Below, piece by piece: positions 27,122 through 49,059 of a DNA stretch of 64,000 nucleotides (position 1 is its first letter; the number at the start of each line of letters is the position of its first letter). The notes under the pieces are model-generated. The model was not told the origin of the DNA. It did no database searches and saw only the letters and a program-made list of their open reading frames with translations. The DNA is taken from assembly GCA_030054145.1 (NCBI GenBank), contig JASGCK010000011.1:3684-67683 (forward strand). The letters run 5' to 3'. This DNA comes from Cytophagales bacterium. Its GTDB lineage: Bacteria; Pseudomonadota; Gammaproteobacteria; Burkholderiales; Burkholderiaceae_C. The position numbers and the translations under genes are program-made.

Positions 27122-27132
27122 GATGAAATCCT

Positions 27133-27163
27133 ATTTGACTAGAATTTTTATATTTTAGTCAAA

Positions 27164-27164: not shown

Positions 27165-31909
<4,745 letters not shown>

Positions 31910-32733: not shown

Positions 32734-32760
32734 AATAATTAGGGTCTGTCCCCAATTATT
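32734..32760. repeat. REP family 1, single copy
   Basis: 'AATAATTAGGGTCTGTCCCCAATTATT' lies between the RAYT start and the aroB stop. The aroB stop codon lies inside it. Confidence 0.75.
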
Positions 32761-34426: not shown

Positions 34427-35155
34427 TCAAAACAACCAAGCCCCCGCGCAGTTGGCGTTGCCTGTAGAAGTCCATGTGTTGGCTACGACACCTGGCACCG
34501 TCATGCCTGCGCAATTGGCGGTCGTATCCGCGCCGTCCGAGGTGCTTTGCCGAAACAAGCCCGTGTACGGCACACCGTCATCGGCCTTTTGATCGACTTG
34601 TTGCAAGATAGCGGCGGTGACCTTCGAGCCCGTGGTCAGCACATTGCGATCAGGCATGGCGGTGGTGAGCTTGTCGTACCAATACACGCCCGTTGCTGAT
34701 GCGGCTACCGTACCAAATTGCAGTGATTGGCTGTACGAGTTAATGGGTGAGTTCCCCGTTGTAGCGGCGGCATTGCCGGTCACACTCATGCAGCTTGCGC
34801 ACGATAAAAAGCTGGTCGCCGTCAAATTTTGAAACACCAAAACCGACTCGCTATTGATGTCAATCCTGCCGTCACCACTGACAACTGAGCCACTTGTCGT
34901 CGAGGCAACAACGCCACTACCAACAAACGAAGCTTGCGCGGCGGTTAAATCCCCCGACATGAGTTGGTAGCGATTTGAAAAACCAAGATAGGCCGTTTGG
35001 ATGCTGCTCTTTTGGTCAATGATGTGGCGCGCCTTCGCTGAGTTAATCAGCTCTTGACCGCGCAGTACACCCGTCACAACCAAGGTGAAGATGACGAGAA
35101 CAATAGCAAGCTCAACCAAGGTAAAGCCGCGAGCGATGCGGCGTTTCATGGCCAT
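34427..35155 (-). CDS. prepilin-type protein, paralog of the two tandem pilins at 46400..48034
   Basis: Leader 'MAMKRRIARG|FTLVELAIVLVIF' with G-1/F+1/E+5. It shares 'LRGQELINSA', 'SC.SCM', 'DQKADDGVPYTG' and a C-terminal Cys...Cys loop with the other two. An alternative ATG at 35149 gives an ATGA overlap. Confidence 0.75.
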   Translation of the reverse strand: MAMKRRIARGFTLVELAIVLVIFTLVVTGVLRGQELINSAKARHIIDQKSSIQTAYLGFSNRYQLMSGDLTAAQASFVGSGVVASTTSGSVVSGDGRIDINSESVLVFQNLTATSFLSCASCMSVTGNAAATTGNSPINSYSQSLQFGTVAASATGVYWYDKLTTAMPDRNVLTTGSKVTAAILQQVDQKADDGVPYTGLFRQSTSDGADTTANCAGMTVPGVVANTWTSTGNANCAGAWLF

Positions 35156-36081
35156 ACTCCTGCGTTGAGCATTTTGGCGGCGAGGGTTGTGGATGACATA
35201 AAGCTCATCAAGTCGTCGTATTCGCCCGTGTTGCTGCTGGCATCTGTTCGTGCGCGCATCACAAACATACGGCGATTAGCGGCGGTTGCGGTCACTCCTG
35301 TTAGTCGTTCGGTTGCATTGACCGTTTGATCGGGTGGTGCATTGCTAGCTGGGAAGGCTTTTGTGACAGAAACGTTATTGATACTGGTTGCGCCATAAGC
35401 ATTTGCGCCCATGGAATACACCACAAAAACAGCGTTGGTACTAACTGAGTAGGCGGGTGATGTGGTGGATGAACACCCTAGCGCGGCTGTCGTGCTGGTC
35501 GTTGTTGCCGGGTTGCCGCAACGGATATCGAGTTGATAAGTATTAGTGCAGCCAAGATTGGTCAAGCCAAAATTGCCACCACAAACATTTACCGAGCCTA
35601 CCTTCTTGCCTACCTGCGTGGTGAGCGGTGTAAATACCGCGTAGCGCAGTCTATTGCTCCAAGCGTCCGCGTTACTAGGGGCGGATAACCCCAGCGTTTG
35701 CCACGGCAGATCACCCCAGCTAGCTTCTTCTGGGTCGGAGTGGTAGTTGGCGGCAGTTGATGCTGTCCCCGCAATGCCTATGCTGCAACCATCAATAAAG
35801 GTAGTTCCGCTCACGGTCGTTGTATGAACATCCTCTATGCCATCACGGTTATCACTTGCAACCGTGTTTGTATTCATATCTGGGCAAGGCAGGCGGCGAT
35901 TTAAGGCAGCAAATCCCACCAATGCCTCAACGGCTCTATCGATATTGTTTTGCGTGTCGGTGTATTGTTGTTCAACAAGGCGTTTACTCATGGGGACGGC
36001 TAGTCCGCCAATGACGAGGGCGACGATAGTCAGCGCTACCGCCAATTCAATCAAGGTGAAGCCACGAGATTGATGAGTCAT
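35146..36081 (-). CDS. minor pilin-like prepilin protein
   Basis: 311 aa with 'MTHQSRG|FTLIELAVALTIVALVIGG'. It shares an 'RRLPCPD' motif with the upstream 514-aa protein. Confidence 0.7.
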   Translation of the reverse strand: MTHQSRGFTLIELAVALTIVALVIGGLAVPMSKRLVEQQYTDTQNNIDRAVEALVGFAALNRRLPCPDMNTNTVASDNRDGIEDVHTTTVSGTTFIDGCSIGIAGTASTAANYHSDPEEASWGDLPWQTLGLSAPSNADAWSNRLRYAVFTPLTTQVGKKVGSVNVCGGNFGLTNLGCTNTYQLDIRCGNPATTTSTTAALGCSSTTSPAYSVSTNAVFVVYSMGANAYGATSINNVSVTKAFPASNAPPDQTVNATERLTGVTATAANRRMFVMRARTDASSNTGEYDDLMSFMSSTTLAAKMLNAGVWP

Positions 36082-36096
36082 AGATACCTCACTTGT

Positions 36097-37641
36097 CTAG
36101 GGGCTTAGTTGAATTAAAACGTCGTTGCTACTCGCGGGTTGTGGAACGCGATAGTTGACGCTGGCTAAGTGGTCTGCTGGGGTTTTTAATGGTGTTGTAT
36201 AGGCCGCATGAACGGTTGCTTTGTTGCTAGAGTCTTCTAAACATCCTGCGATATTGGGCGCGGAGGCAGTGCCTTTTGTTTGATAAGCTTGGCAACTAGT
36301 TTGAGTTGTACGCATTCTTCCGCGCATCAAAATAATGGCAGCAGGGCCATTCGTGCCCGTACCCAAATTAACTCGGGCAGCATCTCTGCAAGGTACAGCT
36401 TTTTTCAAGGTAACAAGCTGAACGGAATCAACAACTGCTGGCGTTCCACGTACACCCGTCTTACTGCCGATGCAGTCTTCGGATACTGCATAGTGACTGT
36501 GTGCCGCCCATCCGTCAAGGTCGGTGGGTACAAATCTTGTTCCAAGATCAAGATCGTTCGCGCCCACAAGTCCGCTACACGTATAGGGCATATAGCCTTG
36601 AAGCAAGGTAGGGTCGCAACTTCCGCCTAGCGTAGAGGCGGCTCCAGGATAAAAACCATTGGCACTTACAAAAGCATGGATGGCGCTGGCGTATAGGTTG
36701 GCAGTGCGCTTTGTGGCTGCTTTTGCAAACTCTTCTGCCGTAATCCAAATCACTTGGTCGTTGAGTTGCTCTCGTCCTACATCCGCCGTGATAAATGTCT
36801 TATAGGAGTTGTTGGCGGTTGCACTTTGGGTATTTTTACTTAGGTTGACGGATGTGAAGTTGGTAATGATGGTTTGATTATTGGCGCGACTATTTCCAGA
36901 AATGTTGACATCAAGGTAGTTTTTGAAATAACTAGGGGCTGACGCTTGTGCATCAACACCCGTAAGCGCACATACTCGATTGGTACCTGTGGCGGATTGC
37001 GTTTGAGCGCCGCCTGCGGGGCCTGGCGCAATGATGACGGCGACGACTCTGTCGGGTGAGTTGGGTGTGGTTGTGGACTCATTTCCCGCTAACAATTTAT
37101 CTTGCCAAGTAATAGTGCCATCGGACGCAACGTATTTAACGGGTTGAATGACCGAAAAACTGCCAAAAGAGTCCGCATTCACAAAGTTTGAGGATGAACT
37201 ACCCGCCTTAAAGTAACCATCTACCGCATACCAAAGGCATTGATGTGCCGCGTCACGAATAACAGGAGTATTCAGAGTCGCCCAAGGGAATAGACCAAAG
37301 GCGTGATAGCCCTCACCTGTCGCAGTTCCAGATCCGCAAGAGCTAGGTGTGCTGCTGTCGCCTGCCGCATTGGGACAGGGTAGTCGCCCATTGATCGCCG
37401 TCAGTATTTGGGCTTGAATCAGTGTCGTGTCGCGACCCACCGCCACATACGTGAGCAGCGCCTCCTTCGCCTGCCGCAGCGCTTCTTGCGTGACCTTGGT
37501 TTGATACGCCCGTGGGTCGCCGCCCCACAGGTCTTTGGTCATTATGGTGACGGTGAGCATGGCTAGGCTGACTAAAAGCAAAATCGCGACCAGACCGCGC
37601 TGCTGTGCGGGTTGACGGCGATAGGGCTGGCGCGGTCTCAT
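36097..37641 (-). CDS. large GspK/PilX-like pilin-related protein (no Glu+5)
   Basis: 514 aa. 'QQRGLVAILLLVSLAMLTV' is a pilin-like hydrophobic N-terminus that lacks E+5. It has a 'GRLPCPN' motif and a Cys-, Ser- and Thr-rich periplasmic body. ATGA overlap with the upstream gene. Confidence 0.5.
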   Translation of the reverse strand: MRPRQPYRRQPAQQRGLVAILLLVSLAMLTVTIMTKDLWGGDPRAYQTKVTQEALRQAKEALLTYVAVGRDTTLIQAQILTAINGRLPCPNAAGDSSTPSSCGSGTATGEGYHAFGLFPWATLNTPVIRDAAHQCLWYAVDGYFKAGSSSSNFVNADSFGSFSVIQPVKYVASDGTITWQDKLLAGNESTTTPNSPDRVVAVIIAPGPAGGAQTQSATGTNRVCALTGVDAQASAPSYFKNYLDVNISGNSRANNQTIITNFTSVNLSKNTQSATANNSYKTFITADVGREQLNDQVIWITAEEFAKAATKRTANLYASAIHAFVSANGFYPGAASTLGGSCDPTLLQGYMPYTCSGLVGANDLDLGTRFVPTDLDGWAAHSHYAVSEDCIGSKTGVRGTPAVVDSVQLVTLKKAVPCRDAARVNLGTGTNGPAAIILMRGRMRTTQTSCQAYQTKGTASAPNIAGCLEDSSNKATVHAAYTTPLKTPADHLASVNYRVPQPASSNDVLIQLSP

Positions 37642-38300
37642 GGTTTGGCTTTCGATGTGGTGGTTGCGGCGGTGGTGGCGGACGAAGCCGCGCCTTCTGG
37701 CGCTGCGCTTGGTGTGGCTAGTGTGGCGGCGGCGGCTTGCCCCGCTGCCCTTTCGGCTTTGGCTTCCTCTAGCGTTTGCGGTCTTGTGAGGCTGTCGCCA
37801 ATTTTGGCGAATTCGGTTTTGCCTTTGGCAACGACGGAGTTCATGCCGATGATTTCGCCCTTGTTATTGCGCACGAGGCTCAGGCCATACGGCAAGCTGG
37901 CTTCGGCGAATGGCTTGCCGTTAATCCACACGCTGATGCGCTGGCCTGCGGGACGGTCGGGGCGGTGGCTTAGGCCTTCGATGCGCAGTACGCTGGGCAC
38001 TTCGACTTCGACTGCGGTTTTGATTTTTGCTTCGATGAGGGCGACGGCCTTCACGTTGAAGCGGTTGTCGTCGATGCGCGAGCGTTCGCTCTCAGTCGTC
38101 AGCAGTCGCCCAAGGCCCAGGCCATAACGCACTTGGGCGTGCGCGGCAGCTGCGATGCAGCCGATGGCAAGAGTGAGGGCGAGGGTGAGTACAGAGGCGA
38201 CCAGCCCAAGCCTTGTGCGCTTCCTTGTGCGCTTTGCCGCGTGGTGTGATGAGGCTTGCGCTGCGGCGCGAGAGGATGGGTGCAGAAGTGAGTTCATCAT
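37638..38300 (-). CDS. hypothetical lipoprotein-like periplasmic protein (PilP/GspC-position)
   Basis: 220 aa. Basic n-region 'KRTRKRTR', h-region and possible lipobox 'LAIGC', about 120 aa of beta-rich sequence, and an Ala/Thr-rich tail. No family recognised by eye. Confidence 0.4.
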   Translation of the reverse strand: MMNSLLHPSSRAAAQASSHHAAKRTRKRTRLGLVASVLTLALTLAIGCIAAAAHAQVRYGLGLGRLLTTESERSRIDDNRFNVKAVALIEAKIKTAVEVEVPSVLRIEGLSHRPDRPAGQRISVWINGKPFAEASLPYGLSLVRNNKGEIIGMNSVVAKGKTEFAKIGDSLTRPQTLEEAKAERAAGQAAAATLATPSAAPEGAASSATTAATTTSKAKP

Positions 38301-38309
38301 GGCACTGGC

Positions 38310-39059
38310 TCAAGGGTTGTAGGCGTTCATGCTGACCCACGTGAGGGCGCAATCGGCCTCAATGCCATCGCCCACAATCTCGTCAGGTGTACGCTGCGCC
38401 TCGGAGTTGCTGGGGCGTTTGAAATTGCACTGCTTGACGCTGAATAAGCCCAAGTTGGCTGCTTTGAGTTCGTCAAAAATAGCAAATACATCACCTTCAT
38501 GCAAGAGGCGCAAGGTCAGTTTCATGTCGGTGCTAAACACCGAAAAGTTTTTAACGGGATCGCCGTTTGGCAGCTTAGCGCCCGCAGTAGGCTGGGGCGG
38601 CGGCACGTTTGTCCCTTCTTTGAATAAGATTTTTTGCGGCGCAATATCGTACTTAATGGTGATGCCCAGCCAGCGTTTTTCGATGGTGCGCAGCTGCTCG
38701 ACCCACTCCAGCCGCTTCTCTTCGCCAAAGATGCCTTTGGCTTCTAAGTCGCGCAAAATCGGCAAGTGTTTGACGATGCTATCGCGCTCTTGTCCACTGT
38801 CGCGCAGTTTGGCTTCGGCATTGGCTTTGAGTCCATTTTGCGTGCTGAGTTTTTGCGATAAATCTTTGTCTTGTTCTTGTAAAAACCAGATTGCGGCAAT
38901 GGCGAGCACTACGATAACGGCAAGCAAAACGGCGGCGCGGCGCAAGTTGCTGGGCCAACTCTTCCAGCTCCATGTGAGGCTATCTTGCGCGGCGGTGGTG
39001 CCTGGATTTTCATCGTCTTCGCCAATTAGCCCCGTTTGACTCTGGATTACCGTTGCCAT
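38310..39059 (-). CDS. bitopic inner-membrane protein, PilO/GspM-like topology
   Basis: 249 aa. A roughly 45-aa acidic cytoplasmic N-terminus, the TM helix 'AAVLLAVIVVLAIAAIWFL', a coiled-coil ('LSQKLSTQNGLKANAEAKLRD') and a roughly 130-aa periplasmic domain. Confidence 0.45.
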   Translation of the reverse strand: MATVIQSQTGLIGEDDENPGTTAAQDSLTWSWKSWPSNLRRAAVLLAVIVVLAIAAIWFLQEQDKDLSQKLSTQNGLKANAEAKLRDSGQERDSIVKHLPILRDLEAKGIFGEEKRLEWVEQLRTIEKRWLGITIKYDIAPQKILFKEGTNVPPPQPTAGAKLPNGDPVKNFSVFSTDMKLTLRLLHEGDVFAIFDELKAANLGLFSVKQCNFKRPSNSEAQRTPDEIVGDGIEADCALTWVSMNAYNP

Positions 39060-40582
39060 AGTTTGACCTCGAAATTCAGTTCAGATTTTTCCTGCCTGCT
39101 AGAGCCCGACAGAGCTGCCTTGGTACTCAGATCTAGCGGCTTTTTGGTAATTTCGGCGCGAAGATTGGGCTGACGATTCAGGTCAGCCAAAAACCTTGCC
39201 AGTGCATCGCGCGTGCCGCGCAGGTCGGTGCTGGCAATGCCGCGAATCGTGCCGCGCATCGAAAGCGTTGAGCTGACTTTGTTGTCTTTGGCGGGCGTGG
39301 GCGGCGTGCCTGCGGCAGGATGTGTTGTCGCCGAATGGGGCGCTTCGGTTGCCCACTGCAACTCATCAATCACCATGCCAGGGTGTCGCTCTAAGACTTG
39401 CCCTGCCGCCACCAAAATGGGACGCATAGAGGGCAAGGTGCTCGCCTCAATGCCTTGCCAACGACTGGCCATCTCCGTTAATTGCGCGGCGGTTAGCGGG
39501 GTTATCGGGTAGGTTTTTGCAATCGCCAAATATTGCTGCGAGGCTCGGTTGTGTGCCCGAGTCGAGGTGTCAATATCCACTTGCTTTTGCCACAGCTGTG
39601 ATGCACCCAAAGCCAAATAAAGCATCGCACAAGCCGCCACAATGGCTGCGCCGATGTAGGTGGCGCTGGTCGCGCGGATGCTTTGGTCGCGCTTGATGTA
39701 AGGCAGTGGCGCGAGCTGTAACGCTGGCTGCTGTTTTGCCAGTGCAGCAACGTAGACTAAATGCGTGAGCGGGCTATCAATCCAGTGGTATTGATCACGC
39801 GCGTGCTGAGTGTCAGCACCGATCGCCTGCGCTGGGCGTGTGTGCTCTGGCAGCACGGTGTACAGGCTCATACCTGCGCGGTCATTTTTAAGTTGACCAT
39901 TGCCAATTAAGTATTCGCGCAGCCGTGCAGTTTCTTGGTACACCGTGGCAAACCACGACACGCCTACGGTTGGCGGATGCAGCGCGAGGCGTGAAAACCG
40001 CACACGACCACCAGCTAGCACCGTTTGGCGAAGCCCTTCGGCGTGCGGCGTAACTAAAACGCCGATTGACTCTTCGCTTTTGAGTGGTTTGACTTTGAGC
40101 AAAGCAATAGCAGCTGGTGTCAGCATGACGGGCGAGTAAACACCCCGAATGCGTACTTCGCAAGTGTGTAGCGCATCCAGCCAAGGGGTGACGGATTCTG
40201 GGCGGCCAAGGGTGTAGCCCAAAACGCGCATTTTGTCGGATTGGTTGCGGCTTTTGCCTTGCATATCCGACCAACGGTAGGGGCTGTCCATGCCCGATTG
40301 CTCCGACATACGGTCAATCCAAACCGAACGCGCCTTGCCGCGCATGAAGGGCATCACACCGCCCCAAAAAGTTTCTTCACTTTGATCGACCAAAATCACC
40401 CAAGGTTTGTTGGGTAATTGAGTCGCCCATTCCGCCAAGTCTTGTGCTTGTTCTAAGCCGCCTTGAAGCTGCACGAGGCTTGCACCGCGTGCGCCCACGT
40501 CGTAAATTTCCGCTTTGCCCGAGGCAAGGTGCAAGATGTAGAGCGGGTGCCGGCTTTTGATAAAGGGAAGGGGATTGCGCAT
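39047..40582 (-). CDS. bitopic protein, GspL / PilM-PilN-fusion-like topology
   Basis: 511 aa. A roughly 310-aa cytoplasmic part, one TM helix 'YIGAAIVAACAMLYLALGA' and a roughly 170-aa periplasmic part. TAATG junction with the platform gene. No actin-like ATP motifs recognised. Confidence 0.42.
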   Translation of the reverse strand: MRNPLPFIKSRHPLYILHLASGKAEIYDVGARGASLVQLQGGLEQAQDLAEWATQLPNKPWVILVDQSEETFWGGVMPFMRGKARSVWIDRMSEQSGMDSPYRWSDMQGKSRNQSDKMRVLGYTLGRPESVTPWLDALHTCEVRIRGVYSPVMLTPAAIALLKVKPLKSEESIGVLVTPHAEGLRQTVLAGGRVRFSRLALHPPTVGVSWFATVYQETARLREYLIGNGQLKNDRAGMSLYTVLPEHTRPAQAIGADTQHARDQYHWIDSPLTHLVYVAALAKQQPALQLAPLPYIKRDQSIRATSATYIGAAIVAACAMLYLALGASQLWQKQVDIDTSTRAHNRASQQYLAIAKTYPITPLTAAQLTEMASRWQGIEASTLPSMRPILVAAGQVLERHPGMVIDELQWATEAPHSATTHPAAGTPPTPAKDNKVSSTLSMRGTIRGIASTDLRGTRDALARFLADLNRQPNLRAEITKKPLDLSTKAALSGSSRQEKSELNFEVKLWQR

Positions 40583-41787
40583 TAGATTTTTCCTCCGCCA
40601 ATCACTGACTCATAAAGCGGCCCTAGCGTAAAGACCATGATGAGTGCCATGATGCCGCCCAAGATCACGGTCATGATGGGCTGCAAACTGGCTTGCAAAT
40701 TCTCCACCGCATCACGCGCTTCGCGGGTGTACATATAGCTCACATTTTTGAGTGATTTATCGAGTGAACCCGTGGCCTCGCCCACGCGCAGCATACTGAC
40801 GACCATTGGCGGAAACAGAGCGCTGCCCGAGAACGCCGCTGACAAACTTTTCCCCTTGGTGATTTGTATCCGAGCACTTTTAATAGCCTCCGCCATCGCT
40901 TGATTGCCGACGGCTTTCTCGACAACTTTGAGCGCATCCGTCACCGTTACGCCCGCCGCATAAAGGATTGCCAGCACATACGAAAACCGCGCCAGTGCAA
41001 TGCGTGACAGCACTTTGCCGAGCACGGGCAGTTTGAGTTTGAGGTTGTCGGTGTGCGTGCGCATTTTGCCTGGGACTTTTGCTACGAACGCAATGAAGGC
41101 CATCCCTCCGCCCACAAACAGTGCCAGCAAAAGCCAATGGTTCAAAATGACATCAGACATCCACATCAGCGCCCGCGTTTGCCACGGCAATTCGATTTGC
41201 ATGGTCTTCAAGAGCTGCGTAATTTGCGGCACAACGTAGCCCAGCATAAAGAGCAGGACACCCGTAATCACCACGGTCACGATGATTGGGTAGGTCAGCG
41301 CTTTTCTGGTTTGGCTCGCCATTTCGTATTGCCATTTAATCGTCTCGGTGAGGTCTTCTAAAACTTCGATGAACTGTCCCGTTTGCTCGCCTGCTTGAAT
41401 CAAATTGACATACACCGAGTCAAACACTTTGGGCTGCGTCAGCATGGCTTGCGAGAGCGTTTTGCCGCTGGACAGCGCATCAATTAATTTGCCAATCACT
41501 TCGCGCATGGCGGAGTTGCCCTCGCCCTCGGACACGTCGCGCAGCGCATCCAAAATCGTCACACCCGCACGCAGCATCATGCTGAGTTGAAAGCTGAAAT
41601 TGAGCAGTTGTTCGCGTCCCGTTTTGGCGGCAAACAGCGTCAAGCCTGGGCGCACAATCGTCGCTTTGAGTAGTAGCTGTCCCGATTGCTCAAGACTCAA
41701 GGCGAGCGCCGTTTGGTCAACCGCTTGGCTTTTGCCAGACTGCGTTTTTCCTTCGGTATTAATGGCTTTCCAGGCGAATACAGGCAT
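40582..41787 (-). CDS. type II secretion / type IV pilus inner-membrane platform protein (GspF/PilC/MshG family)
   Basis: 401 aa. An internally duplicated T2SSF domain ('LSMMLRAGVTILDAL...' and 'LAILYAAGVTVTDAL...') with three TM segments. Confidence 0.9.
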   Translation of the reverse strand: MPVFAWKAINTEGKTQSGKSQAVDQTALALSLEQSGQLLLKATIVRPGLTLFAAKTGREQLLNFSFQLSMMLRAGVTILDALRDVSEGEGNSAMREVIGKLIDALSSGKTLSQAMLTQPKVFDSVYVNLIQAGEQTGQFIEVLEDLTETIKWQYEMASQTRKALTYPIIVTVVITGVLLFMLGYVVPQITQLLKTMQIELPWQTRALMWMSDVILNHWLLLALFVGGGMAFIAFVAKVPGKMRTHTDNLKLKLPVLGKVLSRIALARFSYVLAILYAAGVTVTDALKVVEKAVGNQAMAEAIKSARIQITKGKSLSAAFSGSALFPPMVVSMLRVGEATGSLDKSLKNVSYMYTREARDAVENLQASLQPIMTVILGGIMALIMVFTLGPLYESVIGGGKI

Positions 41788-41802
41788 AGGTTCTTCCTGG
41801 AG

Positions 41803-43488
41803 TTAGCGTTGCACCAAACTGACGACGCGGCTGACTTCTTCGATGGTGCTGTCCCCCGCTAAAACGCGGCGAATAGCATCATCACGCAGCGTGACAAAGC
41901 CCGCACTTCGCGCGTATCTGGCCAGTTCGGGCGGACTGGCATTGGTCGCAACGAGTTCATCCATTTTTTCGTCAAAGATCAATACTTCCATCAACACAAA
42001 TCGACCGCGATAGCCCGATTGACTACAGTGTGCGCAGCCTACGGCTTTGTAGATATGGGTTTTGGTGGCGTCGCCAATGGCTACGCCAAGCAGCTGCTGG
42101 TCGTGCGGGCTTAGCTGGGCAGGCGCTTTGCAATGCACGCACAGTTTGCGCGAGAGGCGCTGACCGATCACGCCAATCATGTTGCCTGCCAAAATTTCGG
42201 AACTCACGCCAATATCGCGCAGGCGCTGTACGGCTGCAAGCGCTGAGTTGGTGTGCAAAGTGGCAAATACTTGATGCCCCGTCATCGCGGCACGAAACGC
42301 CATCTCAGCGGTTTCTTGATCGCGAATTTCGCCCACCAAAATCACGTCAGGATCTTGCCGCATCAAGGCGCGAACGCCGTCTGCAAACGTGAGTTTTTCG
42401 GTAATTTGGGTTTGCCGAATGAGTGGCAGCGGATATTCAATGGGGTCTTCCAGCGTCATCACGTTCACGTCTTCGTTGCTAACGGAGGACAGCACCGAGT
42501 ACAGCGTGGTGGTTTTGCCGCTACCCGTGGGACCCGTTACCAGCACAATGCCTTCGGGTTTGGCCACTGCTGCATTGATGCAGCGCCTTGCGTGATCGCT
42601 GATATCCACACGCTTAAATGGCACGATGTTTTTGTTTTTATCCAGCAAGCGCAGCACAATGTTTTCACCGTGTGCGGTGGGCAAGCAAGCGGCGCGAAAG
42701 TCAATGTCGTTAATGCCCAATTGAAAACCAAAGCGCCCATCTTGCGGCAGGCGACTCTCGGCAATGTTCATGCCTGCCAGCACCTTGAGTTTGACCGCCA
42801 GCCCCGACCAAATGGAGGCGTGCAGTAAATGGGATTGCTTCAAAATGCCATCAATGCGCAGCCGCACACGCAGGAAATACTCGTCTGGTTCAAAGTGAAT
42901 ATCGGATGCTTCGCTGTCATAGGCTTGCTGCAAAATGGCTTCGACAATTTTTTCAATGGGCGGCTCTCGTCCGCCTGTTGCCAAAATGCTTTCAACTGAA
43001 ATGCGTTCACCAAAAACGCGGTCAATTTCGCGGTGCAATTCGGTTTCGGCTGCCAAGCCCAGTTTGACGTGTACAACGCCTTGACTGCGCAAATGTGCCG
43101 TGACTTGATCAATGCCAATTAAATCATGGGGGTCGGATACTGCCAGCAGCACGCGCCCCGTATTCGATTTGGCAACAGGCAACATTTTGTGGTACCGCGC
43201 CAACGCGCCCGAGATCAAGCGCTCAATAGTGGGGTCGGGGCGCTGGGCCGCAATATCGACAACGGGCAGTTGCAATAAATTCGCGCGGATGTCGCGCAGT
43301 ATGGACACAGACATCAAGCCTAAACGGGTGATATGGCTATGCAGCTGTCCGCCAAGTCTTTTTTGCTCCGCCATCGCAATGCCCAGTTCGCTTGACGACA
43401 AATGCTTCTCCGCGAGCAGTTTGTCGGCTAGCTCGCGGTCTGTTTTGCGTAACAAGCCATTGCTGACTTCGCTTGGCAGTGTATTCAT
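41803..43488 (-). CDS. GspE/PilB/MshE-family assembly ATPase
   Basis: 561 aa. Walker A 'GPTGSGKTTTL', Asp box, Walker B 'DPDVILVGEIRD', His box 'TGHQVFATLHTN' and a tetracysteine 'CVHC...CAHC'. The N-terminal domain is T2SSE_N-like. Confidence 0.92.
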   Translation of the reverse strand: MNTLPSEVSNGLLRKTDRELADKLLAEKHLSSSELGIAMAEQKRLGGQLHSHITRLGLMSVSILRDIRANLLQLPVVDIAAQRPDPTIERLISGALARYHKMLPVAKSNTGRVLLAVSDPHDLIGIDQVTAHLRSQGVVHVKLGLAAETELHREIDRVFGERISVESILATGGREPPIEKIVEAILQQAYDSEASDIHFEPDEYFLRVRLRIDGILKQSHLLHASIWSGLAVKLKVLAGMNIAESRLPQDGRFGFQLGINDIDFRAACLPTAHGENIVLRLLDKNKNIVPFKRVDISDHARRCINAAVAKPEGIVLVTGPTGSGKTTTLYSVLSSVSNEDVNVMTLEDPIEYPLPLIRQTQITEKLTFADGVRALMRQDPDVILVGEIRDQETAEMAFRAAMTGHQVFATLHTNSALAAVQRLRDIGVSSEILAGNMIGVIGQRLSRKLCVHCKAPAQLSPHDQQLLGVAIGDATKTHIYKAVGCAHCSQSGYRGRFVLMEVLIFDEKMDELVATNASPPELARYARSAGFVTLRDDAIRRVLAGDSTIEEVSRVVSLVQR

Positions 43489-43515
43489 AAGCAGGGTCGT
43501 AGGACTTGGGTGGGA

Positions 43516-44334
43516 CTAGGGCGTGGCCGTCAAGATGCGCAGTCTGGCGCGGGCAATATCACGGTTAAATACGGCATTGGTTTGATTTGATAAATTGAGC
43601 GCTAGTACGTATTGCCGCGCGGCATCGCGGGTGCGGCCTAAGCGGTCCAAAGCCAATGCTTGGTTGTAGGCGTAATCGGGCTGCTCTGGCTCCATCGCAC
43701 ACGCACGGCTAAAGGCGCGTTCGGCTTCACCAAAGCGATCTTGGTCGAAGTACAAGACGCCTAGTGTGTAGTGCAAGGCAGCGGGATGCTCGCTTCGCTC
43801 TAACAAAGATTGGAAGCGCGATTCTTCCGCCTGCAAATCACCCCCCGAGATTAAAAAAATCGCACTGCTGGCAGCGCTGTCGCGTGGGTAGAGTTCAATC
43901 AAACGGCGCAGCGTTGACAAGGCTTGCTCGGTGTTGCCCAGCGCGTAGTGCGCGTAGGCAATGCCCAGCAAGGCATCGCGCTGCGTAGGGTTGCGAGCCA
44001 GCGCTTGGCTATATGCCTCACGTGCAGGACTAAATTGATTTAGCTGCAAAGCTTTGTAGCCGCGCAGCACATCGGGATCAACGGAAGAGGCCAGTTGACC
44101 GCGTTTGATTTGCGGTGGTGGATCGACTTGATCCATCACGGTTTGCGCTGTTTGGATGTTGGGATTGGTGGTGGCGGTGGTGGCGGTGGTGGCGGTGGCC
44201 GAGGTGGCCGAAGCGGCATTGCTGCTGGCGTTCACATTGACGGGCGCACTTTTAGGACGACGCTGGGCCTGCGCGTTGGCTTGCGCTACCACTAAGCAAA
44301 GCGCGATGAAGAGACTCGATAAAAGTAATTTCAT
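43516..44334 (-). CDS. secreted TPR-repeat protein (MshN-position)
   Basis: ATG 44334 overlaps the secretin stop (ATGA). Signal peptide 'MKLLLSSLFIALCLVVAQANA', an Ala/Thr run 'SATSATATTATTATT' encoded by a GGTGGCGGT repeat, then TPRs ('AREAYSQALARNP', 'AERAFSRACAMEP'). Confidence 0.75.
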   Translation of the reverse strand: MKLLLSSLFIALCLVVAQANAQAQRRPKSAPVNVNASSNAASATSATATTATTATTNPNIQTAQTVMDQVDPPPQIKRGQLASSVDPDVLRGYKALQLNQFSPAREAYSQALARNPTQRDALLGIAYAHYALGNTEQALSTLRRLIELYPRDSAASSAIFLISGGDLQAEESRFQSLLERSEHPAALHYTLGVLYFDQDRFGEAERAFSRACAMEPEQPDYAYNQALALDRLGRTRDAARQYVLALNLSNQTNAVFNRDIARARLRILTATP

Positions 44335-46310
44335 TTGGGTGCTCCCCATGCTTGTGCTGCTGTGCCGCTAAAGAACGTACTGGTCGGCAGCTGCGATTTG
44401 TACTCTTTGTAGTCGCCTGTAATTGACGCGTCCTTAATCACCACGGGGCGCATAAAAACAACCAATTCAGTCTTGGTGCGCGAGGTGCTGCGTTGCCCCG
44501 TCAACGTACCTAGCACGGGCGTGCGGTTCAAGCCTGGAATGCCTTGCTCGGCCGAGATGTCGGACTCTTGCATGAGTCCACCCAGCACCGCGATTTCGCC
44601 ACTTTGCACACGCAAAATGGATTCCAACTCGCGCGACTGAACCACAGGAATTAAGTTGGTAATGGGCGGCGTGGCGGTCAGTAGTGCAGGATTGGGATCG
44701 ACGAGGGTGCTAATGACCCGCGTGATGCTGGGATGCACATTGAGCGTTACGTCGCCCGCATCCGAGATTTGCGGTGTCACCGTCATCACAAAGCCCACAG
44801 GCACGGTGTTGATGTTGGACGTATAGACCGCTGGCGAAAGCAAAACCCCCGTATTGCTGATGGAGGCGGGCGTGTAGGACAGCGTAACGTACACGTAGTT
44901 GTCAATCACTTTGATGATAGCGGTTTGGTTGTTAATCACGGAGAGCTTGGGGCTTGATAAAACCTTGGTTTTGCCAAAGCTCTCTAGCAAACTAATGGCG
45001 GCCGAGATGCTGCCCCAAACCGTATTGGTTGTACCCGTATTGGGGTAACGCAACGTGGCGGAGGTTGCATTGGTCACGGATGAGGAGGGTGTCAAATTGA
45101 TACTCAATCCAGTTGCTGCGCCATTGGTGATGAGTTGCGACCAGTTAATGCCCGATTGCGATGCGGCGCTGAGTTGCACTTCCACAATCGTCGCCTCGAT
45201 CAGCACTTGGCGGCGTGCGCCCGCCATCACACGGTCGAGAAATGCACGCACGCGTTCGTGACCTTTGGAGGTGGTGTTCACGCCGACCACGCCCGACTCC
45301 TTGTTCACCATGAGCGGATTGTTTGTGTTGCCCGTGCCGCCTGCGCCCGTACCGCCTGCGCCGCCGCAAGTCAGTGCGCCCGTGGTTGCCGTCTGTGCGC
45401 TGCCTGCCGCTGCACCACCGCCCGCCGCCACGTTGCCCGCCGCCGCATTGCCCGTAGCAACAACGCCATTGCCCAATACGGATGCGGTGCTAGATGTGGG
45501 CGCTGTGCGCAGGCTGTTGCTGTCCATCACTTGGCGCATTAAGTCGGCCGCAGCTGCGGAGTTCGCGCTCGCACCCCCAGCGCCCGCCGCGCCGCTGCTT
45601 TGCAGCGCCTTGGTCAGCTCCAGCGCCACCCGCAGACGGTCATCGCGCTCTTGGCTGATTTGGCGCGTGATTTGCTCGTCGCGCTGATTGCGGTTTTGAT
45701 TAGCCGTCAGCACGATTTGACAAACGTTAGAGACCAAGGTGTCCCAAAATCGATTGTCCGCCGTTGATTTGATAGACGAATCCGATCCACCCGCGCTGCT
45801 GACTGCTGCGCCGCCCAGCGAGGAACTGACGGAGACATTGCTACTGGACTGACGCAGCAAATTGACGTAATCAATGGTGTAGTTTTGCAGGTAAGGCGCA
45901 TCGGGCTGGACACGCAGCAAACTGCCGTTAATCTCGTAGCGAATATCGGTTTGCGCAGCAATGCGCTCCAGCAATTGCGGCAGTGTTTGGTCAGTCGCGT
46001 TCAACGTGACGCGCCCGCCGACCGAGGGATGAATGTCCACATTCAGCTTGTTGTCGCGTGCCAAAGCAAACAGCAGCGTTTTGACTGATACATCGTTCAC
46101 CACCACGCTAAACACTTCCTGCGCGGCACGTGGCACGGGCGCTGGCGGCATGGCGGGAAGACGCACGGGCTTCATGCTAGGCGGCGTGACGGCAGCAATG
46201 ACTTCGGGCTTGGCGCTGACGTGGCGATCGCTCATCACCTGCGGCGGCAAACCACAAGAGCAAAGCAAAAAGCTTGTGGCAAAAGCAAAGGTGGAGAGCG
46301 CAAATTTCAT
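44331..46310 (-). CDS. secretin (GspD/PilQ/MshL family), probable lipoprotein
   Basis: ATG 46310 gives 659 aa with signal/lipobox 'MKFALSTFAFATSFLLCSCG'. The C-terminal secretin domain has 'GEIAVLGGLMQE', 'GIPGLNRTPVLGTL' and 'TELVVFMRPVVI'. A roughly 100-aa Ala/Gly/Ser/Thr low-complexity insert lies mid-protein. Confidence 0.88.
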   Translation of the reverse strand: MKFALSTFAFATSFLLCSCGLPPQVMSDRHVSAKPEVIAAVTPPSMKPVRLPAMPPAPVPRAAQEVFSVVVNDVSVKTLLFALARDNKLNVDIHPSVGGRVTLNATDQTLPQLLERIAAQTDIRYEINGSLLRVQPDAPYLQNYTIDYVNLLRQSSSNVSVSSSLGGAAVSSAGGSDSSIKSTADNRFWDTLVSNVCQIVLTANQNRNQRDEQITRQISQERDDRLRVALELTKALQSSGAAGAGGASANSAAAADLMRQVMDSNSLRTAPTSSTASVLGNGVVATGNAAAGNVAAGGGAAAGSAQTATTGALTCGGAGGTGAGGTGNTNNPLMVNKESGVVGVNTTSKGHERVRAFLDRVMAGARRQVLIEATIVEVQLSAASQSGINWSQLITNGAATGLSINLTPSSSVTNATSATLRYPNTGTTNTVWGSISAAISLLESFGKTKVLSSPKLSVINNQTAIIKVIDNYVYVTLSYTPASISNTGVLLSPAVYTSNINTVPVGFVMTVTPQISDAGDVTLNVHPSITRVISTLVDPNPALLTATPPITNLIPVVQSRELESILRVQSGEIAVLGGLMQESDISAEQGIPGLNRTPVLGTLTGQRSTSRTKTELVVFMRPVVIKDASITGDYKEYKSQLPTSTFFSGTAAQAWGAPK

Positions 46311-46391
46311 AGGGTTTCTCAATAGATGTTCTCTAGTTTTGAAAACAATTGTCTTGTTATGAATAATTTTTAGCTAATAATTTTTATCAAT

Positions 46392-46420
46392 ATAAAAACT
46401 TAAAACAAGGACACTCCTTG
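46392..46420 (-). terminator. weak terminator/attenuator-like hairpin overlapping the pilin stop
   Basis: On the - strand: 'CAAGGAgtgTCCTTG' followed by 'TTTTAAGTTTTTAT'. The stem is only 6 bp and the loop only 3 nt. Confidence 0.3.
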
Positions 46421-47200
46421 GCAAATGGCTGGTGGACTAATGAGCCATGCATAAGAAGTTTGAGCTGCTAAGCTAGGTGTGACGCAGGCTAAACTGGCGT
46501 GACCACTTGCGGTTGAGAAAAAGTCGCTGTATCTAATTTTCCCCGTGGCGGGTGCGCCGTCATCATCTTTTCTATCCATTTCCGCCAGTAGTCGGGAGTC
46601 GATTCCGTCCCCTGTTGAGAGCATCGGTTTGGTGCCTTCGTTTTGCATGGTTGAGAGATAGAACGAGCCCGCAGCATTGCTATTGGGCATGGTCGCGGGG
46701 TTGGGGTAGGTGAAATAGAGTGGACGCCCCAAAAAGTTGTACGGACTATTCAAAGTCGTGCCGCCAGTGGTGCCAGAAGTGGTGGGTGTCATGCACTGCG
46801 AGCAGCTAATCAAGCCTGCTTGCGCGAGGTTATTAAAAAATTCGGGACTGTCATTAATCGGAACCCAGCCATCGCCCGCAAAATCAGTCGCACTCGTATT
46901 CGTTGCAACTAATGCGCCGCCCAAGTTGGCATCCGACAACAAGCCGCTACCCAGCTTGACCGTCACCGCCTGCGCCAAGGTTAAATCCCCTGGCAGGGCG
47001 TTGTAGCGATCTTGAAAGGCATAAAACGCAACTTGAATCGCTTTTTGTTGATCCATGATGTTACGCACCCGCGCCGAGTTAATCATTTCTTGACCACGCA
47101 AAATTCCACCAATGAGCAAACCGATGACCACCAGCACAATCGCTATCTCAACGAGGGTAAAACCTCGTTGAGATGATGATTGAGCAGCTGATCGAGTCAT
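46400..47200 (-). CDS. type IV pilin-like protein (large, 266 aa)
   Basis: 'MTRSAAQSSSQRG|FTLVEIAIVLVVIGLLIGGILRGQEMINSAR', 'SCSQCM', 'DRKDDDGAPATG' and a C-terminal Cys...Cys loop ending 'CQGVSLF'. Confidence 0.8.
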   Translation of the reverse strand: MTRSAAQSSSQRGFTLVEIAIVLVVIGLLIGGILRGQEMINSARVRNIMDQQKAIQVAFYAFQDRYNALPGDLTLAQAVTVKLGSGLLSDANLGGALVATNTSATDFAGDGWVPINDSPEFFNNLAQAGLISCSQCMTPTTSGTTGGTTLNSPYNFLGRPLYFTYPNPATMPNSNAAGSFYLSTMQNEGTKPMLSTGDGIDSRLLAEMDRKDDDGAPATGKIRYSDFFSTASGHASLACVTPSLAAQTSYAWLISPPAICQGVSLF

Positions 47201-47221
47201 GTTTGTTGCTCGACAAAGTCG

Positions 47222-48034
47222 CTACATGAGGCTTGCACCTTGGCAATTACCGCCTGGGGGCGCAACCATCCAAGGTGTCGTCCCTGCCATATTGGCTGCG
47301 AGTGTGACACCACCTACAGCTGCTCCGCCCTCATTGAGGCAATTAGCAATGCCTACTGCGGCTGCGGGGGTAACGGTAAAGTTGATATCACTAAAGCGAA
47401 AGATGCCGCGCGTTGGATCGCCATCATCCACTTTGCGATCCACCTCTGCCAACATCGCCGAGGAGATGCCCAGTCCCGTGACCACCATTGGCTTTGTTGC
47501 AAATTCAGCAGTCGTTGAAATAAAGAGCGAGCTTGCCGCTATACCGCCTTGGGCAGCAGGCTGCAAAGTGAACCAAACAGGGCTACCAAACGTATTAGCG
47601 GGGCTATTGGTCGTGGTCAGTATGGTCGCTGTAGTACCAACTGTAGCTAATGTACCATTTTGCGTCATGCACTGCGAGCAAGATATCATGCCCGCTTGCG
47701 CGATGTTGTTAAAGAATTCTGGGCTTTCTAAGGGGGGTACGACACCATTGCCTTGTATGCCTGTTGCTTGCGAGGTGCTGGCATTTACTAACGCTGCTTG
47801 CGCCGCAGTTAAATCTCCAGGCAGTGCTTTGTAGCGATCTAAAAATCCGTAATACGCGGTTTGAATACTCGATTGCTGCGCAATGACGCTACGGGTGCGT
47901 GCCGTGTTAATTAACTCTTGCCCGCGCAAAATGCCACCAATCAGCAAACCAATAATGACCAAAACAATGGCAATCTCAACAAGGGTAAAACCTCGTTGCG
48001 TTTGTTTTTTTATGCTAGATAATGATGTTTTCAT
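47222..48034 (-). CDS. type IV pilin-like protein (large, 270 aa), first gene of the cluster
   Basis: A strong AGGAG RBS. 'MKTSLSSIKKQTQRG|FTLVEIAIVLVIIGLLIGGILRGQELINTAR', 'SCSQCM', 'DRKVDDGDPTRG' and a C-terminal loop 'C...CQGASLM'. Confidence 0.8.
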   Translation of the reverse strand: MKTSLSSIKKQTQRGFTLVEIAIVLVIIGLLIGGILRGQELINTARTRSVIAQQSSIQTAYYGFLDRYKALPGDLTAAQAALVNASTSQATGIQGNGVVPPLESPEFFNNIAQAGMISCSQCMTQNGTLATVGTTATILTTTNSPANTFGSPVWFTLQPAAQGGIAASSLFISTTAEFATKPMVVTGLGISSAMLAEVDRKVDDGDPTRGIFRFSDINFTVTPAAAVGIANCLNEGGAAVGGVTLAANMAGTTPWMVAPPGGNCQGASLM

Positions 48035-48252
48035 GTTAGAAACTCCTATGAAATTGAGTGATTTTGTGATTTATTCTTTCTAAAATCACATTTTAATGCT
48101 AACATGATCACATAAATATGTTATAGGGTTTATACCTATGTTTGATTTTATTGCATGATGACAACTAGGCAGAACTATTGAATTCTTAAGTATTCATAAG
48201 TATTCATAAAATAATCACGATTGCTTGACTAAATACTTGCCAACAACGAACC
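48035..48252. promoter_or_regulatory. AT-rich divergent control region (pilin operon / ABC operon)
   Basis: A 218-bp intergenic region, much more AT-rich than its flanks. Inverted repeat TGTGATTT-N9-AAAATCACA (48065-48090), further TGAT(C)ACA-like half-sites, and a 10-bp direct repeat AAGTATTCAT x2 (48188-48207). Confidence 0.45.
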
Positions 48253-49059
48253 ATGAATCAACCATTACAAAAAAATAGTACCGCTGTTTGGGCGTTGACC
48301 AAACTCGTTTTATTGGAATCTTGGCGTGGACGCAGTGGACGATTTCTTTTTTTGGCGCTTATTGCCATCCAACTGATCGCCAGTTTGGTAACGGAGATGG
48401 CGGTCACGGAGTCGCTGGAGTTGCGCATCACGACATCGGCTTTTTTGTATCGCTTATCGCTCATTTTTGCGCTGGGTGTCTCCATGATTGCCAGTGTGGT
48501 GCGCGAGCATGAAAGTGGCTTTGTGTATGTGCTACTTGCGCACCCTATCTCGCGGATGCATTACGTGCTGGGGCGAATGTTTGGCTATGGCTTGACGGCA
48601 GGGTTGGCGGCGCTGTCGGTCATGTTGGTGATGGCGATTTGGGTGCCTGTTGAGCATTGGCAGGCGCTGCTTATTTGGACGAGTTCGCTGTGGCTGGAGT
48701 TGATGGTGTCAGGTGCTGCGGCGCTGTTTTTTGCGCTGGGTTTGCGCAATATGGTGGGTAGCATGGTGATGTGGCTGGCGTTTTACATCTTGGCGCGGGT
48801 GCTGGATGTGGCTCGCGCGATGGCAGCCAGTCCGATTGGGCAAGACCCGAATAGCTTGCAGGTGCTGGTGGGTCAATGGGCGTTTCAAGCAATGGGCTGG
48901 GTGATCCCGCCGCTGGGCACATTTACGCGGGCGGAGTGGCTCTTGGGCAACGTAGTGCCCGCGCCCGAGATGTGTTTGATTTTGGCGGGCTGGGCGCTGC
49001 TCTATAGCGCGATTTGCGTGGTAGCCGCCGCGATTGATTTTTACCGCCATGAGATTTAA
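48253..49059 (+). CDS. polytopic membrane protein, ABC-2/NosY-like permease
   Basis: 268 aa with about 6 TM segments. Called from its operon with an ABC ATPase two genes downstream. No diagnostic motif. Confidence 0.55.
   Translation: MNQPLQKNSTAVWALTKLVLLESWRGRSGRFLFLALIAIQLIASLVTEMAVTESLELRITTSAFLYRLSLIFALGVSMIASVVREHESGFVYVLLAHPISRMHYVLGRMFGYGLTAGLAALSVMLVMAIWVPVEHWQALLIWTSSLWLELMVSGAAALFFALGLRNMVGSMVMWLAFYILARVLDVARAMAASPIGQDPNSLQVLVGQWAFQAMGWVIPPLGTFTRAEWLLGNVVPAPEMCLILAGWALLYSAICVVAAAIDFYRHEI

Follow-up and report, generated by a model that had tools for sequence, protein, structure and literature searches.

A 64,000-nt window of contig JASGCK010000011.1 (assembly GCA_030054145.1, positions 3,684 to 67,683), the whole stretch of DNA analysed here, contains at 34427-48034 a cluster of twelve minus-strand genes for a type IV filament system. 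It is reasonably probable that this locus encodes a pilus assembly machine related to that of the mannose-sensitive hemagglutinin (MSH) pilus, displaying a surface filament through an outer-membrane secretin, and the filament predicted from the gene content is probably adhesive. The system is not a canonical MSH, type IVa pilus (T4aP) or type II secretion system (T2SS), but a variant with an MSH-type core. Very probably, the functional unit extends to position 50571, taking in a divergent operon that encodes an ATP-binding cassette type 2 (ABC-2) permease, a protein designated p258 and an ABC ATPase, so that the complete unit comprises 15 genes (Table 1).

All twelve open reading frames (ORFs) listed in a previous sequence-only reading of this DNA were found with the same positions and lengths. 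In transcription order they encode two tandem prepilins, pil270 and pil266 (270 and 266 aa), a secretin (663 aa), a protein with tetratricopeptide repeats (TPR; 277 aa), an assembly ATPase (561 aa), a platform protein (401 aa), the proteins p511, p249, p220 and p514 (511, 249, 220 and 514 aa) and two further prepilins, pil311 and pil242 (311 and 242 aa). The domains that had been called from the translations, that is, four N_methyl prepilins, Secretin, TPR, T2SSE with MshEN and two T2SSF repeats, were recovered as well. The tight coupling claimed for all the junctions holds where genes overlap (-19, -13, -10, -4 (ATGA) and -1 (TAATG) nt) or are separated by 9-27 nt, but not between pil266 and the secretin gene, where a 77-nt spacer is located. 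No prepilin peptidase (Peptidase_A24), retraction ATPase PilT, MshM-type ATPase or PilY1 homolog was found in the cluster, in agreement with the same reading, or among the larger ORFs of the window, for which the Pfam scan took in ten of the ORFs of at least 200 aa in 1-27 kb.

An MSH-like core is indicated by the secretin, TPR, ATPase and platform genes, which were compared with the NCBIfam equivalog models and their cut-offs. The secretin, with an STN-like N-domain, a long Gly/Ala/Ser/Thr-rich linker and a lipobox conserved in all relatives, scored 232.8 bits against the MshL model TIGR02519 (model positions 2-290 of 290; just under the cut-off of 250.2 bits), compared with 143 bits for GspD (cut-off 351) and 98 bits for PilQ (cut-off 284), and it matched the HofQ model poorly as well. 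The secreted TPR protein occupies the MshN position, which is kept in all relatives, and is a candidate chaperone for the secretin or for assembly. The ATPase contains a CxxC...CxxC zinc motif and well conserved catalytic regions; its scores against sequences in the PDB (approximately 325-380 bits for PilF, PilB and GspE and about 120 bits for PilT) place it in the assembly class, and its equivalog scores, 462 bits for PilB (cut-off 676) and 458 bits for GspE (cut-off 630), are both under cut-off. The platform protein scored best with GspF (284 bits; cut-off 424) and remained under all equivalog cut-offs.

Binding of cyclic di-GMP (c-di-GMP) by the MshEN domain involves two 24-residue RLGxx(L/V/I)(L/V/I)xxG... 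motifs (PMC5013675). The N-domain of the window ATPase aligns with Vibrio cholerae MshEN (5HTL) and the MshEN fold is present; however, both half-motifs are degenerate, with ELA.../QLH... in place of RLG... (ELADKLLAEKHL... and QLHSHITRLGLM...), and they fail even the relaxed c-di-GMP pattern described in the same study (PMC5013675).

The relationship with the MSH family is supported by distant relatives of the locus (designated here by L numbers). In L010 (a Burkholderiales metagenome-assembled genome, MAG), L012, L016, L019, L020 and L022 (a Noviherbaspirillum MAG) a common architecture was observed, which begins with an optional AAA_22/MshM-like gene followed by the genes for the secretin, the TPR protein, the MshEN/T2SSE ATPase, the T2SSF platform, three proteins of about 520, 200 and 155 aa, a p514-like and a pil311-like protein, and continues with an optional histidine kinase (or response regulator plus kinase), an ABC-2 permease, a p258-like protein, the major pilin and an optional ABC ATPase. 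The same architecture was found in L015 (a Woeseiaceae MAG) as far as the end of the contig. The MshM-like AAA_22 gene precedes the secretin gene in L010, L012, L016 and L019 and is absent from the window and its close relatives. The L012 secretin passes the MshL cut-off (256.6 vs 250.2 bits) and its ATPase passes NF053729, the model for the MshE-related c-di-GMP motif (58 bits; cut-off 38); the same canonical motif was read by eye in the L010 ATPase. Moreover, the (M)-L-N-E-G order corresponds to the matching block of V. cholerae mshIJKLMNEGF (gene order from PMC4624765). Based on the MshL score of L012, the c-di-GMP motifs of L010 and L012, the MshM-like genes and this gene order, the family is considered to be MSH-derived. 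The clade of the window is a reduced version of it, without MshM and the adjacent kinase and with degenerate c-di-GMP motifs, in which the pilin genes are amplified and placed at the head of the operon and the locus occupies a lineage-specific position upstream of aroK.

Eight related loci, all from Comamonadaceae or Burkholderiaceae MAGs, were detected in a search of 185,579 species genomes. A survey of gene-order conservation had been proposed in the sequence-only reading, and its outcome was positive: six of the eight, those of sufficient length, match the window in gene content and order, and the two shorter ones (L003 and L005) are collinear fragments. Where the contig extends into the flanks, aroK-aroB-RAYT-gltB (RAYT, a Y1-transposase gene) borders the cluster at one end, and the ABC-2 operon was seen at the opposite end in L006 and L008. 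Protein identities to the relatives range from 42% (p514) to 87% (ATPase). The conservation of order, flanks and sequence across species indicates that the 12 ORFs are genes under selection and not chance ORFs. The relatives vary chiefly in the number of tandem major-pilin paralogs at the 5' end (1 to 4 copies); in most of them an additional minor pilin gene separates pil311 from pil242, and L013 represents a compact intermediate form. The MAG that contains the window was deposited as 'Cytophagales bacterium' (locus tags QM533_108xx), but its gltB is 91-94% identical to that of the Comamonadaceae/Burkholderiaceae loci and every related locus belongs to these families, hence the label is probably due to a binning error or mislabelling. 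Judged from the isolate names of the MAGs alone, the lineage looks freshwater. The search of 72,556 plasmids by tblastn with p514 gave no match, and with the secretin it gave three remote matches only, one of which, a Legionella 'plasmid', provided an annotated mshL reference locus. This record (L014; Legionella adelaidensis NZ_LR134433.1, 257543-268967) is annotated as 'plasmid 24' yet it carries uvrB, cytochrome oxidase and ubiE, and is probably a chromosomal segment. Its MSH-type locus contains four pilins (one of 563 aa), a PilM-like protein, PilN, two hypothetical proteins, mshL, an AAA ATPase, a hypothetical protein and a GspE-family ATPase.

Between the platform and the pilin-like genes, p511, p249 and p220 form a putative alignment subcomplex for which no match was found in Pfam, NCBIfam or, in profile searches, the PDB sequences. 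The AlphaFold2 (AF2) model of p511, built on a 17-sequence alignment (predicted local distance difference test, pLDDT, 75), starts with an actin-like domain (~1-290), passes through a membrane helix at 305-331 and ends, beyond a long helix, in an alpha/beta domain, and its best Foldseek matches were PilM (5eou/2ych/3jc8), EpsL (1yf5; E 7.5e-8) and PulL (5tkw), with E values from 2e-8 to 2e-5. As modelled, p511 has a fused GspL/MshI-type (PilM+PilN-like) architecture. V. cholerae MshI has been described as GspL/PilN-like (PMC4624765); this architecture, shared with MshI and matching PilM equally well, does not discriminate a T2SS. Thus, in the 'T2SS-like L/M/C trio' of the sequence-only reading the GspL-like fold of p511 was borne out, but not its value as a T2SS trait. 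The p249 protein, with a membrane helix (36-64), a conserved periplasmic domain, a conserved GEEKRLEWVE motif and two invariant Cys, is likely a positional and topological analog of PilO/GspM/MshJ. By its position, p220 would be the analog of PilP/MshK/GspC-HR; its signal peptide ends in AHA/Q and the motifs LGRLxTTxxER and W(I/V)NG are conserved. The proposal that p220 is lipoprotein-like was discarded as improbable, as the Cys is not conserved and the signal peptides of the homologs end in AHA/Q-type cleavage sites. Alignment of the p511, p249 and p220 profiles with the I/J/K-position proteins of the Legionella mshL locus by hhalign gave nothing; a 32-column 'WINGK' hint between p220 and the MshK-position protein (E 0.022, probability 2%) was not counted as evidence.

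Four proteins of the cluster (pil270, pil266, pil311 and pil242) have a prepilin leader with glutamate at position 5 (Glu5). The proteins pil270, pil266 and pil242 are full-length paralogs with 36-48% identity (pil270 is 48% identical to pil266 and 38% to pil242) and a common four-Cys pattern. They match the GspG model over the N-terminal helix only (24 bits; cut-off 88.9), and the major subunits comprise 240-290 aa, compared with the 134 positions of this model. Among close relatives the 25 N-terminal residues of the major pilins are nearly invariant, which together with the variation in copy number (1-4) fits a surface-exposed subunit.

The p514 protein has no Pfam or NCBIfam match. Its N-terminal ~150 aa are paralogous to pil311 (27% identity), with the common motifs LPCP(D/N)...LPWxTLG...YAV, and a pil311-type gene always lies directly after the p514 homolog. 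In the AF2 model (pLDDT 76; predicted template modelling score, pTM, 0.81) an N-terminal helix (15-68) is followed by beta-rich domains that contain 10 Cys, and the protein ends in a beta-strand. Comparison of this confident model with the PDB by Foldseek gave no match to GspK or any other entry (best E = 4), and a 'GspK-like' fold was therefore rejected as unproven. In consequence, the description of this protein as GspK/PilX-like and lacking Glu5 is retained for the N-terminus, where the Glu5-less signature is present, but not for the rest, where no fold match was found. Glu5 is missing in the p514 proteins of the close relatives, L010 and L013, and is kept in the L020 equivalent. Subunits of the PilK/GspK type, which lack Glu5, are regarded as forming the apical tip, and some adhesins, CpaL among them, are large pilin-like proteins (PMC13533445), thus p514 can be viewed as a candidate apical tip subunit or adhesin, a role that is supported, not proven.

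The p514 family is very large, with 5474, 3471 and 2322 representatives (50%-identity clusters) at E<=1e-3, 1e-10 and 1e-30, respectively, in a profile search, and no Pfam domain was detected in the members sampled. Two loci contain p514-like genes together with small pilin-like or unknown genes (L017:10001-13751 and L018:440-2649) and no ATPase, platform or secretin gene within the flank; in L018, a 5.5-kb contig, a MASE3-PAS-GGDEF-EAL protein adjoins the p514-like genes. Such loci could be orphan minor-pilin modules that work with a machine encoded at another site. The use of p514 as an unfailing marker of the full system was rejected on this ground, and the size of the family over-estimates the number of systems.

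By setting the cluster at twelve genes, the sequence-only reading missed the linked ABC-2/p258 module at 48253-50571. In each of the six distant lineages whose flanks are long enough (L010, L012, L016, L019, L020 and L022), an ABC-2 permease gene and a gene at the p258 position adjoin the system. The similarity was confirmed by sequence for p258 in L010, L012, L020 and L022 and for the permease in L010 and L012, and in L016 and L019 both genes were recognized by their position and size; Pfam matches and position identified the permease in L016, L019, L020 and L022. In L010, L012, L016 and L019 the ABC-2 operon encloses the presumed major pilin gene, and in L022 the permease and p258 genes directly adjoin the machinery genes on the same strand. 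After the embedded pilin gene a homolog of the ABC ATPase is found in L012 (39% identity) and an ABC_tran gene in L016 and L019; L020 and L022 have no adjacent ABC ATPase gene. In L012/L010 p258 is 35-48% identical to that of the window, compared with only 23-29% for p511; over such distances its conservation exceeds that of the accessory proteins of the machinery. The p258 family comprises 274 clusters, none of them annotated. Except for glnA-ntrBC, which lies beside both L012 and L019, the chromosomal contexts of the distant systems differ, and the persistence of the linkage across differing contexts is the reason to consider the module as part of the system. In Myxococcus xanthus the ABC transporter PilGHI is encoded next to pilA (PMC6060248).

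Based on this evidence, a working model can be proposed. Processing of pil270, pil266 and possibly pil242 would depend on a prepilin peptidase whose gene lies elsewhere, as is the case for all MSH loci, and the PilB/MshE-class ATPase would drive their polymerization at the GspF-type platform. According to its modelled domain layout, p511 would clamp the ATPase and the platform from the cytoplasmic side and reach into the periplasm, where together with p249 and p220 it would form an alignment subcomplex joined to the lipoprotein MshL-type secretin, with the secreted TPR protein assisting secretin or pilus assembly. The p514 protein and its partial paralog pil311 may constitute a priming or tip complex, the large novel domains of p514 acting as an adhesin. 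The ABC-2 permease, p258 and the ABC ATPase could represent an accessory module for filament biogenesis or function, for which PilGHI provides a precedent, and a retraction ATPase, if any, would act from elsewhere in the genome. In the Comamonadaceae lineage, the MshM-type ATPase, the neighbouring histidine kinase and the c-di-GMP-binding residues of the assembly ATPase would have disappeared, and the major pilin gene would have been amplified and diversified.

Several observations weigh against an MSH-related pilus. The window secretin is slightly under the MshL cut-off, the ATPase scores equally against PilB, GspE and the Legionella MshE-position ATPase and is not placed by these scores, and MshM, which is mandatory in the TXSScan MSH model (PMC6668835), is absent from the window. 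The tip or adhesin role of p514, for which there is no structural match, rests on an N-terminal signature and gene position, and the roles of p249 and p220 were assigned by position and topology, profile searches having found nothing. In addition, no characterized homolog was found; all the relatives are MAG or metagenome contigs and the function is predicted from the genes. A different machine that would account for some of these features is a T2SS-like system, in which a short periplasmic pseudopilus made up of the prepilins would drive one or several folded substrates out through the secretin, with p511, p249 and p220 as GspL, GspM and GspC and p514 as GspK. The fused GspL-type architecture of p511, matching cyto-EpsL/PulL, the large Glu5-less subunit that recalls GspK, the lack of a retraction ATPase in the locus, the platform with its best score against GspF and the ATPase with nearly equal scores against GspE and PilB would all be expected from such a system, and an MshE-type c-di-GMP-binding ATPase has been associated with a T2SS in Pseudomonas aeruginosa (PMC5013675). 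However, the secretin is MshL-like rather than GspD-like, the tandem, fast-diversifying major subunits are much larger than the GspG model, GspC, GspH, GspI and GspJ signatures are missing, the p514 model is unlike GspK structures and no obvious substrate genes are conserved beside the locus, making a secretion function unlikely.

The location of the locus raises another alternative, namely a competence pilus or a dynamic T4aP replacement that is retracted by a PilT encoded elsewhere, since in the window and nine relatives including L013 the cluster is found immediately upstream of aroK-aroB-(RAYT)-gltBD. We take this slot upstream of aroK-aroB to be the classical pilQ/hofQ position (pilMNOPQ/comABCDE/hofMNOPQ in many proteobacteria). 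Vibrio MSHA pili are reported to be retracted by a PilT encoded elsewhere (PMC9815625). On the other hand, distant members of the family sit in unrelated chromosomal contexts, which marks the aroK position as lineage-specific synteny rather than as a functional link; no ComEA, ComEC or DprA-type genes were found nearby in the ORFs examined, and the secretin scores poorly with HofQ and PilQ, so that this explanation is quite unlikely. The absence of the AAA_22 gene and of the adjacent histidine kinase in the window clade, together with the degenerate c-di-GMP motifs, could also be taken to mean that the locus is a decaying remnant of an MSH-type locus that no longer assembles a filament. This is very improbable considering that none of the 12 ORFs is disrupted and their junctions are coupled, that at least 8 species retain the whole set, with 42-87% identity, and that the catalytic regions of the ATPase are well conserved (T2SSE 398 bits); besides, deletion of mshM or mshN in V. 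cholerae does not abolish piliation (PMC4624765).

On a broader scale, it can be tentatively hypothesized, at somewhat less than an even chance, that these loci represent a widespread monophyletic MSH-related subfamily in Beta-/Gammaproteobacteria defined by four features: a novel alignment trio unrelated in sequence to PilMNOP, GspLMC and MshIJK; a tip pilin family (450-640 aa, novel fold, >2,000 clusters); a reduced tip complex consisting of the p514-type protein plus one paralogous minor pilin; and an obligatory ABC-2/p258 module, often with a two-component system and an embedded major pilin gene. If the ABC-2/p258 module were indeed obligatory, it would imply a new functional coupling of an ABC-type membrane module with filament assembly or pilin handling. 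Should the derivation of this group from the MSH type be confirmed, MSH-type pili would be extended to environmental Burkholderiales and Gammaproteobacteria, the window clade would offer a natural experiment on the loss of c-di-GMP control in an MshE-type motor, and the locus would provide the second independent case, after M. xanthus PilGHI, of an ABC-type module tied to pilus biogenesis. The classification of type IV filaments relies on a handful of model systems. In a survey, 101 of 309 representatives were unassigned 'generic' systems (Denise et al., 2019); for one group of this kind, the locus described here supplies a concrete architecture of 15 conserved genes. At least five of its families (p511, p249, p220, p514 and p258) lack a Pfam or NCBIfam model, one of them being very large in metagenomes, and hidden Markov models (HMMs) derived from them would better annotate thousands of 'hypothetical proteins'.

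Table 1. Positions of the genes and other features of the filament locus and its surroundings (window coordinates; a slash marks the end of a leader)
Feature	Position	Strand	Basis or remarks
REP-like copies	31967-31987 (+), 32015-32035 (-), 32737-32757 (-), 50575-50595 (+), 50637-50657 (-)		
pil242, prepilin, full-length paralog of the two major pilins	34427..35155	-	N_methyl; 36-38% identity
pil311, minor prepilin with Glu5	35146..36081	-	N_methyl; shares N-terminal globular domain with p514
p514, large pilin-like protein without Glu5	36097..37641	-	N-terminus …QQRG/LVAILLLV
p220, exported periplasmic protein	37638..38300	-	alignment, signal peptide; no family match
p249, bitopic protein	38310..39059	-	alignment and hydropathy; no family match
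p511, putative bitopic alignment protein	39047..40582	-	AF2 model and Foldseek; no family match
Inner-membrane platform, GspF/PilC/MshG type	40582..41787	-	two T2SSF repeats, 1e-57
Assembly ATPase, PilB/GspE/MshE class	41803..43488	-	T2SSE 4e-119 (398 bits), MshEN PF05157 7e-11
Secreted TPR protein, MshN position	43516..44349	-	multiple generic TPR family matches; signal peptide read from sequence
MshL-type lipoprotein secretin	44331..46322	-	Secretin 1e-33; TIGR02519 232.8 bits
77-nt AT-rich spacer	46323..46399	.	between pil266 and secretin gene
pil266, prepilin, major-pilin paralog 2	46400..47200	-	N_methyl/TIGR02532
pil270, prepilin, major-pilin paralog 1	47222..48034	-	N_methyl/TIGR02532; leader ...QRG/FTLVEIAIVLVII; 4 Cys including CxxC
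AT-rich divergent control region	48035..48252	.	separates pilin operon from ABC-2 operon
ABC-2-type permease	48253..49059	+	weak ABC2_membrane_2/3/4 matches; ~6 hydrophobic segments
p258, bitopic protein (deposited start: 253 aa)	49034..49810	+	no Pfam/NCBIfam match
ABC transporter ATPase, DrrA/GldA-like class	49807..50571	+	ABC_tran 6e-22; drrA 136, GldA 106 bits, both under cut-off

With regard to putative control elements, a strong ribosome-binding site (TAGGAG) precedes pil270, and consensus scans, in which the counts of sigma-70 and terminator matches were not above those of shuffled sequence, gave a terminator-like hairpin at the end of pil266 (46406-46420) and a promoter-like site at 46363-46390. 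Such an arrangement would permit an abundant pilin transcript with read-through or re-initiation into the machinery genes. The sigma-54 consensus gave 126 matches vs 117 expected, none of them in the pilin upstream region. Inside the divergent control region, at 48190-48215 (minus-strand reading), a short direct repeat, TTATGAATAC in two copies followed by TTAAGAAT, could be a candidate binding site for a regulator.

Downstream, the cluster is flanked by aroK, aroB, the RAYT gene and gltB, and upstream, beyond the divergent ABC-2 permease, 258-aa protein and ABC ATPase genes, lies an isocitrate/isopropylmalate-dehydrogenase-like gene, the last identified by reading of its translation. Among the other ORFs of the window, those scanned or read correspond to housekeeping genes (gyrA, pheA, tyrA, aroA-cmk, rpsA, lapB-like and gltD). 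A 21-nt element resembling repetitive extragenic palindromic (REP) sequences, AATTGGGGACAGACCCTAATT, is present in five exact copies in the window (0 expected by chance). Copies flank the Y1-transposase/RAYT gene (32034-32723), the aroB-RAYT-gltB position of which is kept in relatives, and an inverted pair lies directly after the ABC ATPase gene; REP pairs are thus located just beyond both ends of the 15-gene module. Between gltB (27164-31909) and gltD (22569-24050), which are adjacent in L013, the window contains a YhcG/DUF1016 PDDEXK-nuclease gene (24054-25274) and a ~1.9 kb ORF-poor stretch (25275-27163). At 8240-10237 a single 665-aa ORF fuses EPSP synthase (aroA) and cytidylate kinase (cmk). 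The minus-strand ORF at 57351-58967, which encodes a duplicated-ABC ATPase, contains a 21-nt tandem repeat (57391-57509, 5.7 copies) that gives its product a C-terminal array of TPVIPAT heptapeptides; the repeat unit resembles betaproteobacterial intergenic repeat elements, read through.

Compared with known systems, the window differs from T4aP in the scores of PilB (462 of 676 bits) and PilQ (98 of 284 bits), in the lack of PilM_2, PilN, PilO and PilP Pfam matches, in its single-locus instead of multi-locus organization and in that no PilT was found. The T4aP locus of M. xanthus resembles the family in having the major pilin gene beside an ABC-type transporter with an extra protein, a likeness of gene arrangement, and in having PilSR next to pilA, as a response regulator and a histidine kinase adjoin the system in distant relatives; in contrast, its machine is canonical, with PilMNOPQ, PilB, PilT and PilD. 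GspK and the Tad protein CpaL (~600 aa) share with p514 a class-III-like N-terminus without Glu5, a long helix, large extra domains, a location beside minor pilins and, in the model, a terminal beta-strand. However, p514 shows no sequence or fold similarity to GspK or any PDB entry, the equivalent protein of at least one relative (L020) has Glu5, and p514 has one obligatory partner pilin instead of an I/J pair.

The T2SS has in common with the window a secretin, a GspE-class ATPase, a GspF-class platform, the GspL-like p511, a small bitopic GspM-like protein, a large Glu5-less pseudopilin-like subunit such as GspK and the lack of a retraction ATPase in the cluster. It differs in that the Gsp models stay under cut-off (GspD 143/351, GspE 458/630, GspF 284/424 and GspG 24/89 bits), no GspC (HR+PDZ), GspH, GspI, GspJ or GspK signatures were detected in the window proteins with Pfam and NCBIfam beyond the N-terminal methylation helix, the p514 fold has no GspK match and the window pilins, present as diversifying tandem copies, are twice as long as the GspG model. 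Altogether, the view that the cluster fits no canonical model proved correct, as every NCBIfam equivalog (PilB, GspE, GspF, GspD, PilQ and GspG/H) was under cut-off and MshL just under; four proteins remained without a family match, and a complete canonical MSH or T4aP system with HMM matches for every gene was not recovered. The cluster is also poorly described, as had been suggested: the architecture is conserved, widespread and unannotated, no characterized or named example was found in the literature searched and the source annotations read 'hypothetical protein' throughout.

The differences from MSH systems are found mainly outside the core. The window I/J/K-equivalent genes come after the platform gene and not before the secretin gene, and they lack detectable sequence similarity to the PilM, PilN and PilO families or to the Legionella MSH-type locus. 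MshM, MshF, O/P/Q equivalents and an MshQ-like protein of ~1200 aa are absent from the window, pilin genes flank both ends of the cluster, tandem 240-290-aa major pilins with a Glu5-less 514-aa protein and one or two minor pilins replace MshB/A/C/D/O/P/Q, the c-di-GMP motifs are degenerate in the window clade and an ABC-2/p258 module is linked. Conversely, the window resembles MSH loci in its lipoprotein secretin, which is closest to MshL (the best NCBIfam match, over the full model length and just under the cut-off), a TPR protein at the MshN position, an MshEN-domain ATPase, a GspF-type platform, the L-N-E-G order ((M)-L-N-E-G in relatives) and an alignment protein modelled as a GspL-like fusion, a description also given for MshI. 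It is also a single locus without prepilin peptidase or retraction ATPase among the ORFs examined; a single locus without prepilin peptidase is an MSH trait (PMC6668835). Therefore, the statement that the gene order matches no known arrangement is correct for the cluster as a whole, but not for the L-N-E-G block, which is collinear with Vibrio msh, and instead of the distinct branch of the superfamily proposed in the sequence-only reading, the scores and motifs of L012 and L010, the MshM-like genes and the gene order favour a derivative of the MSH family.

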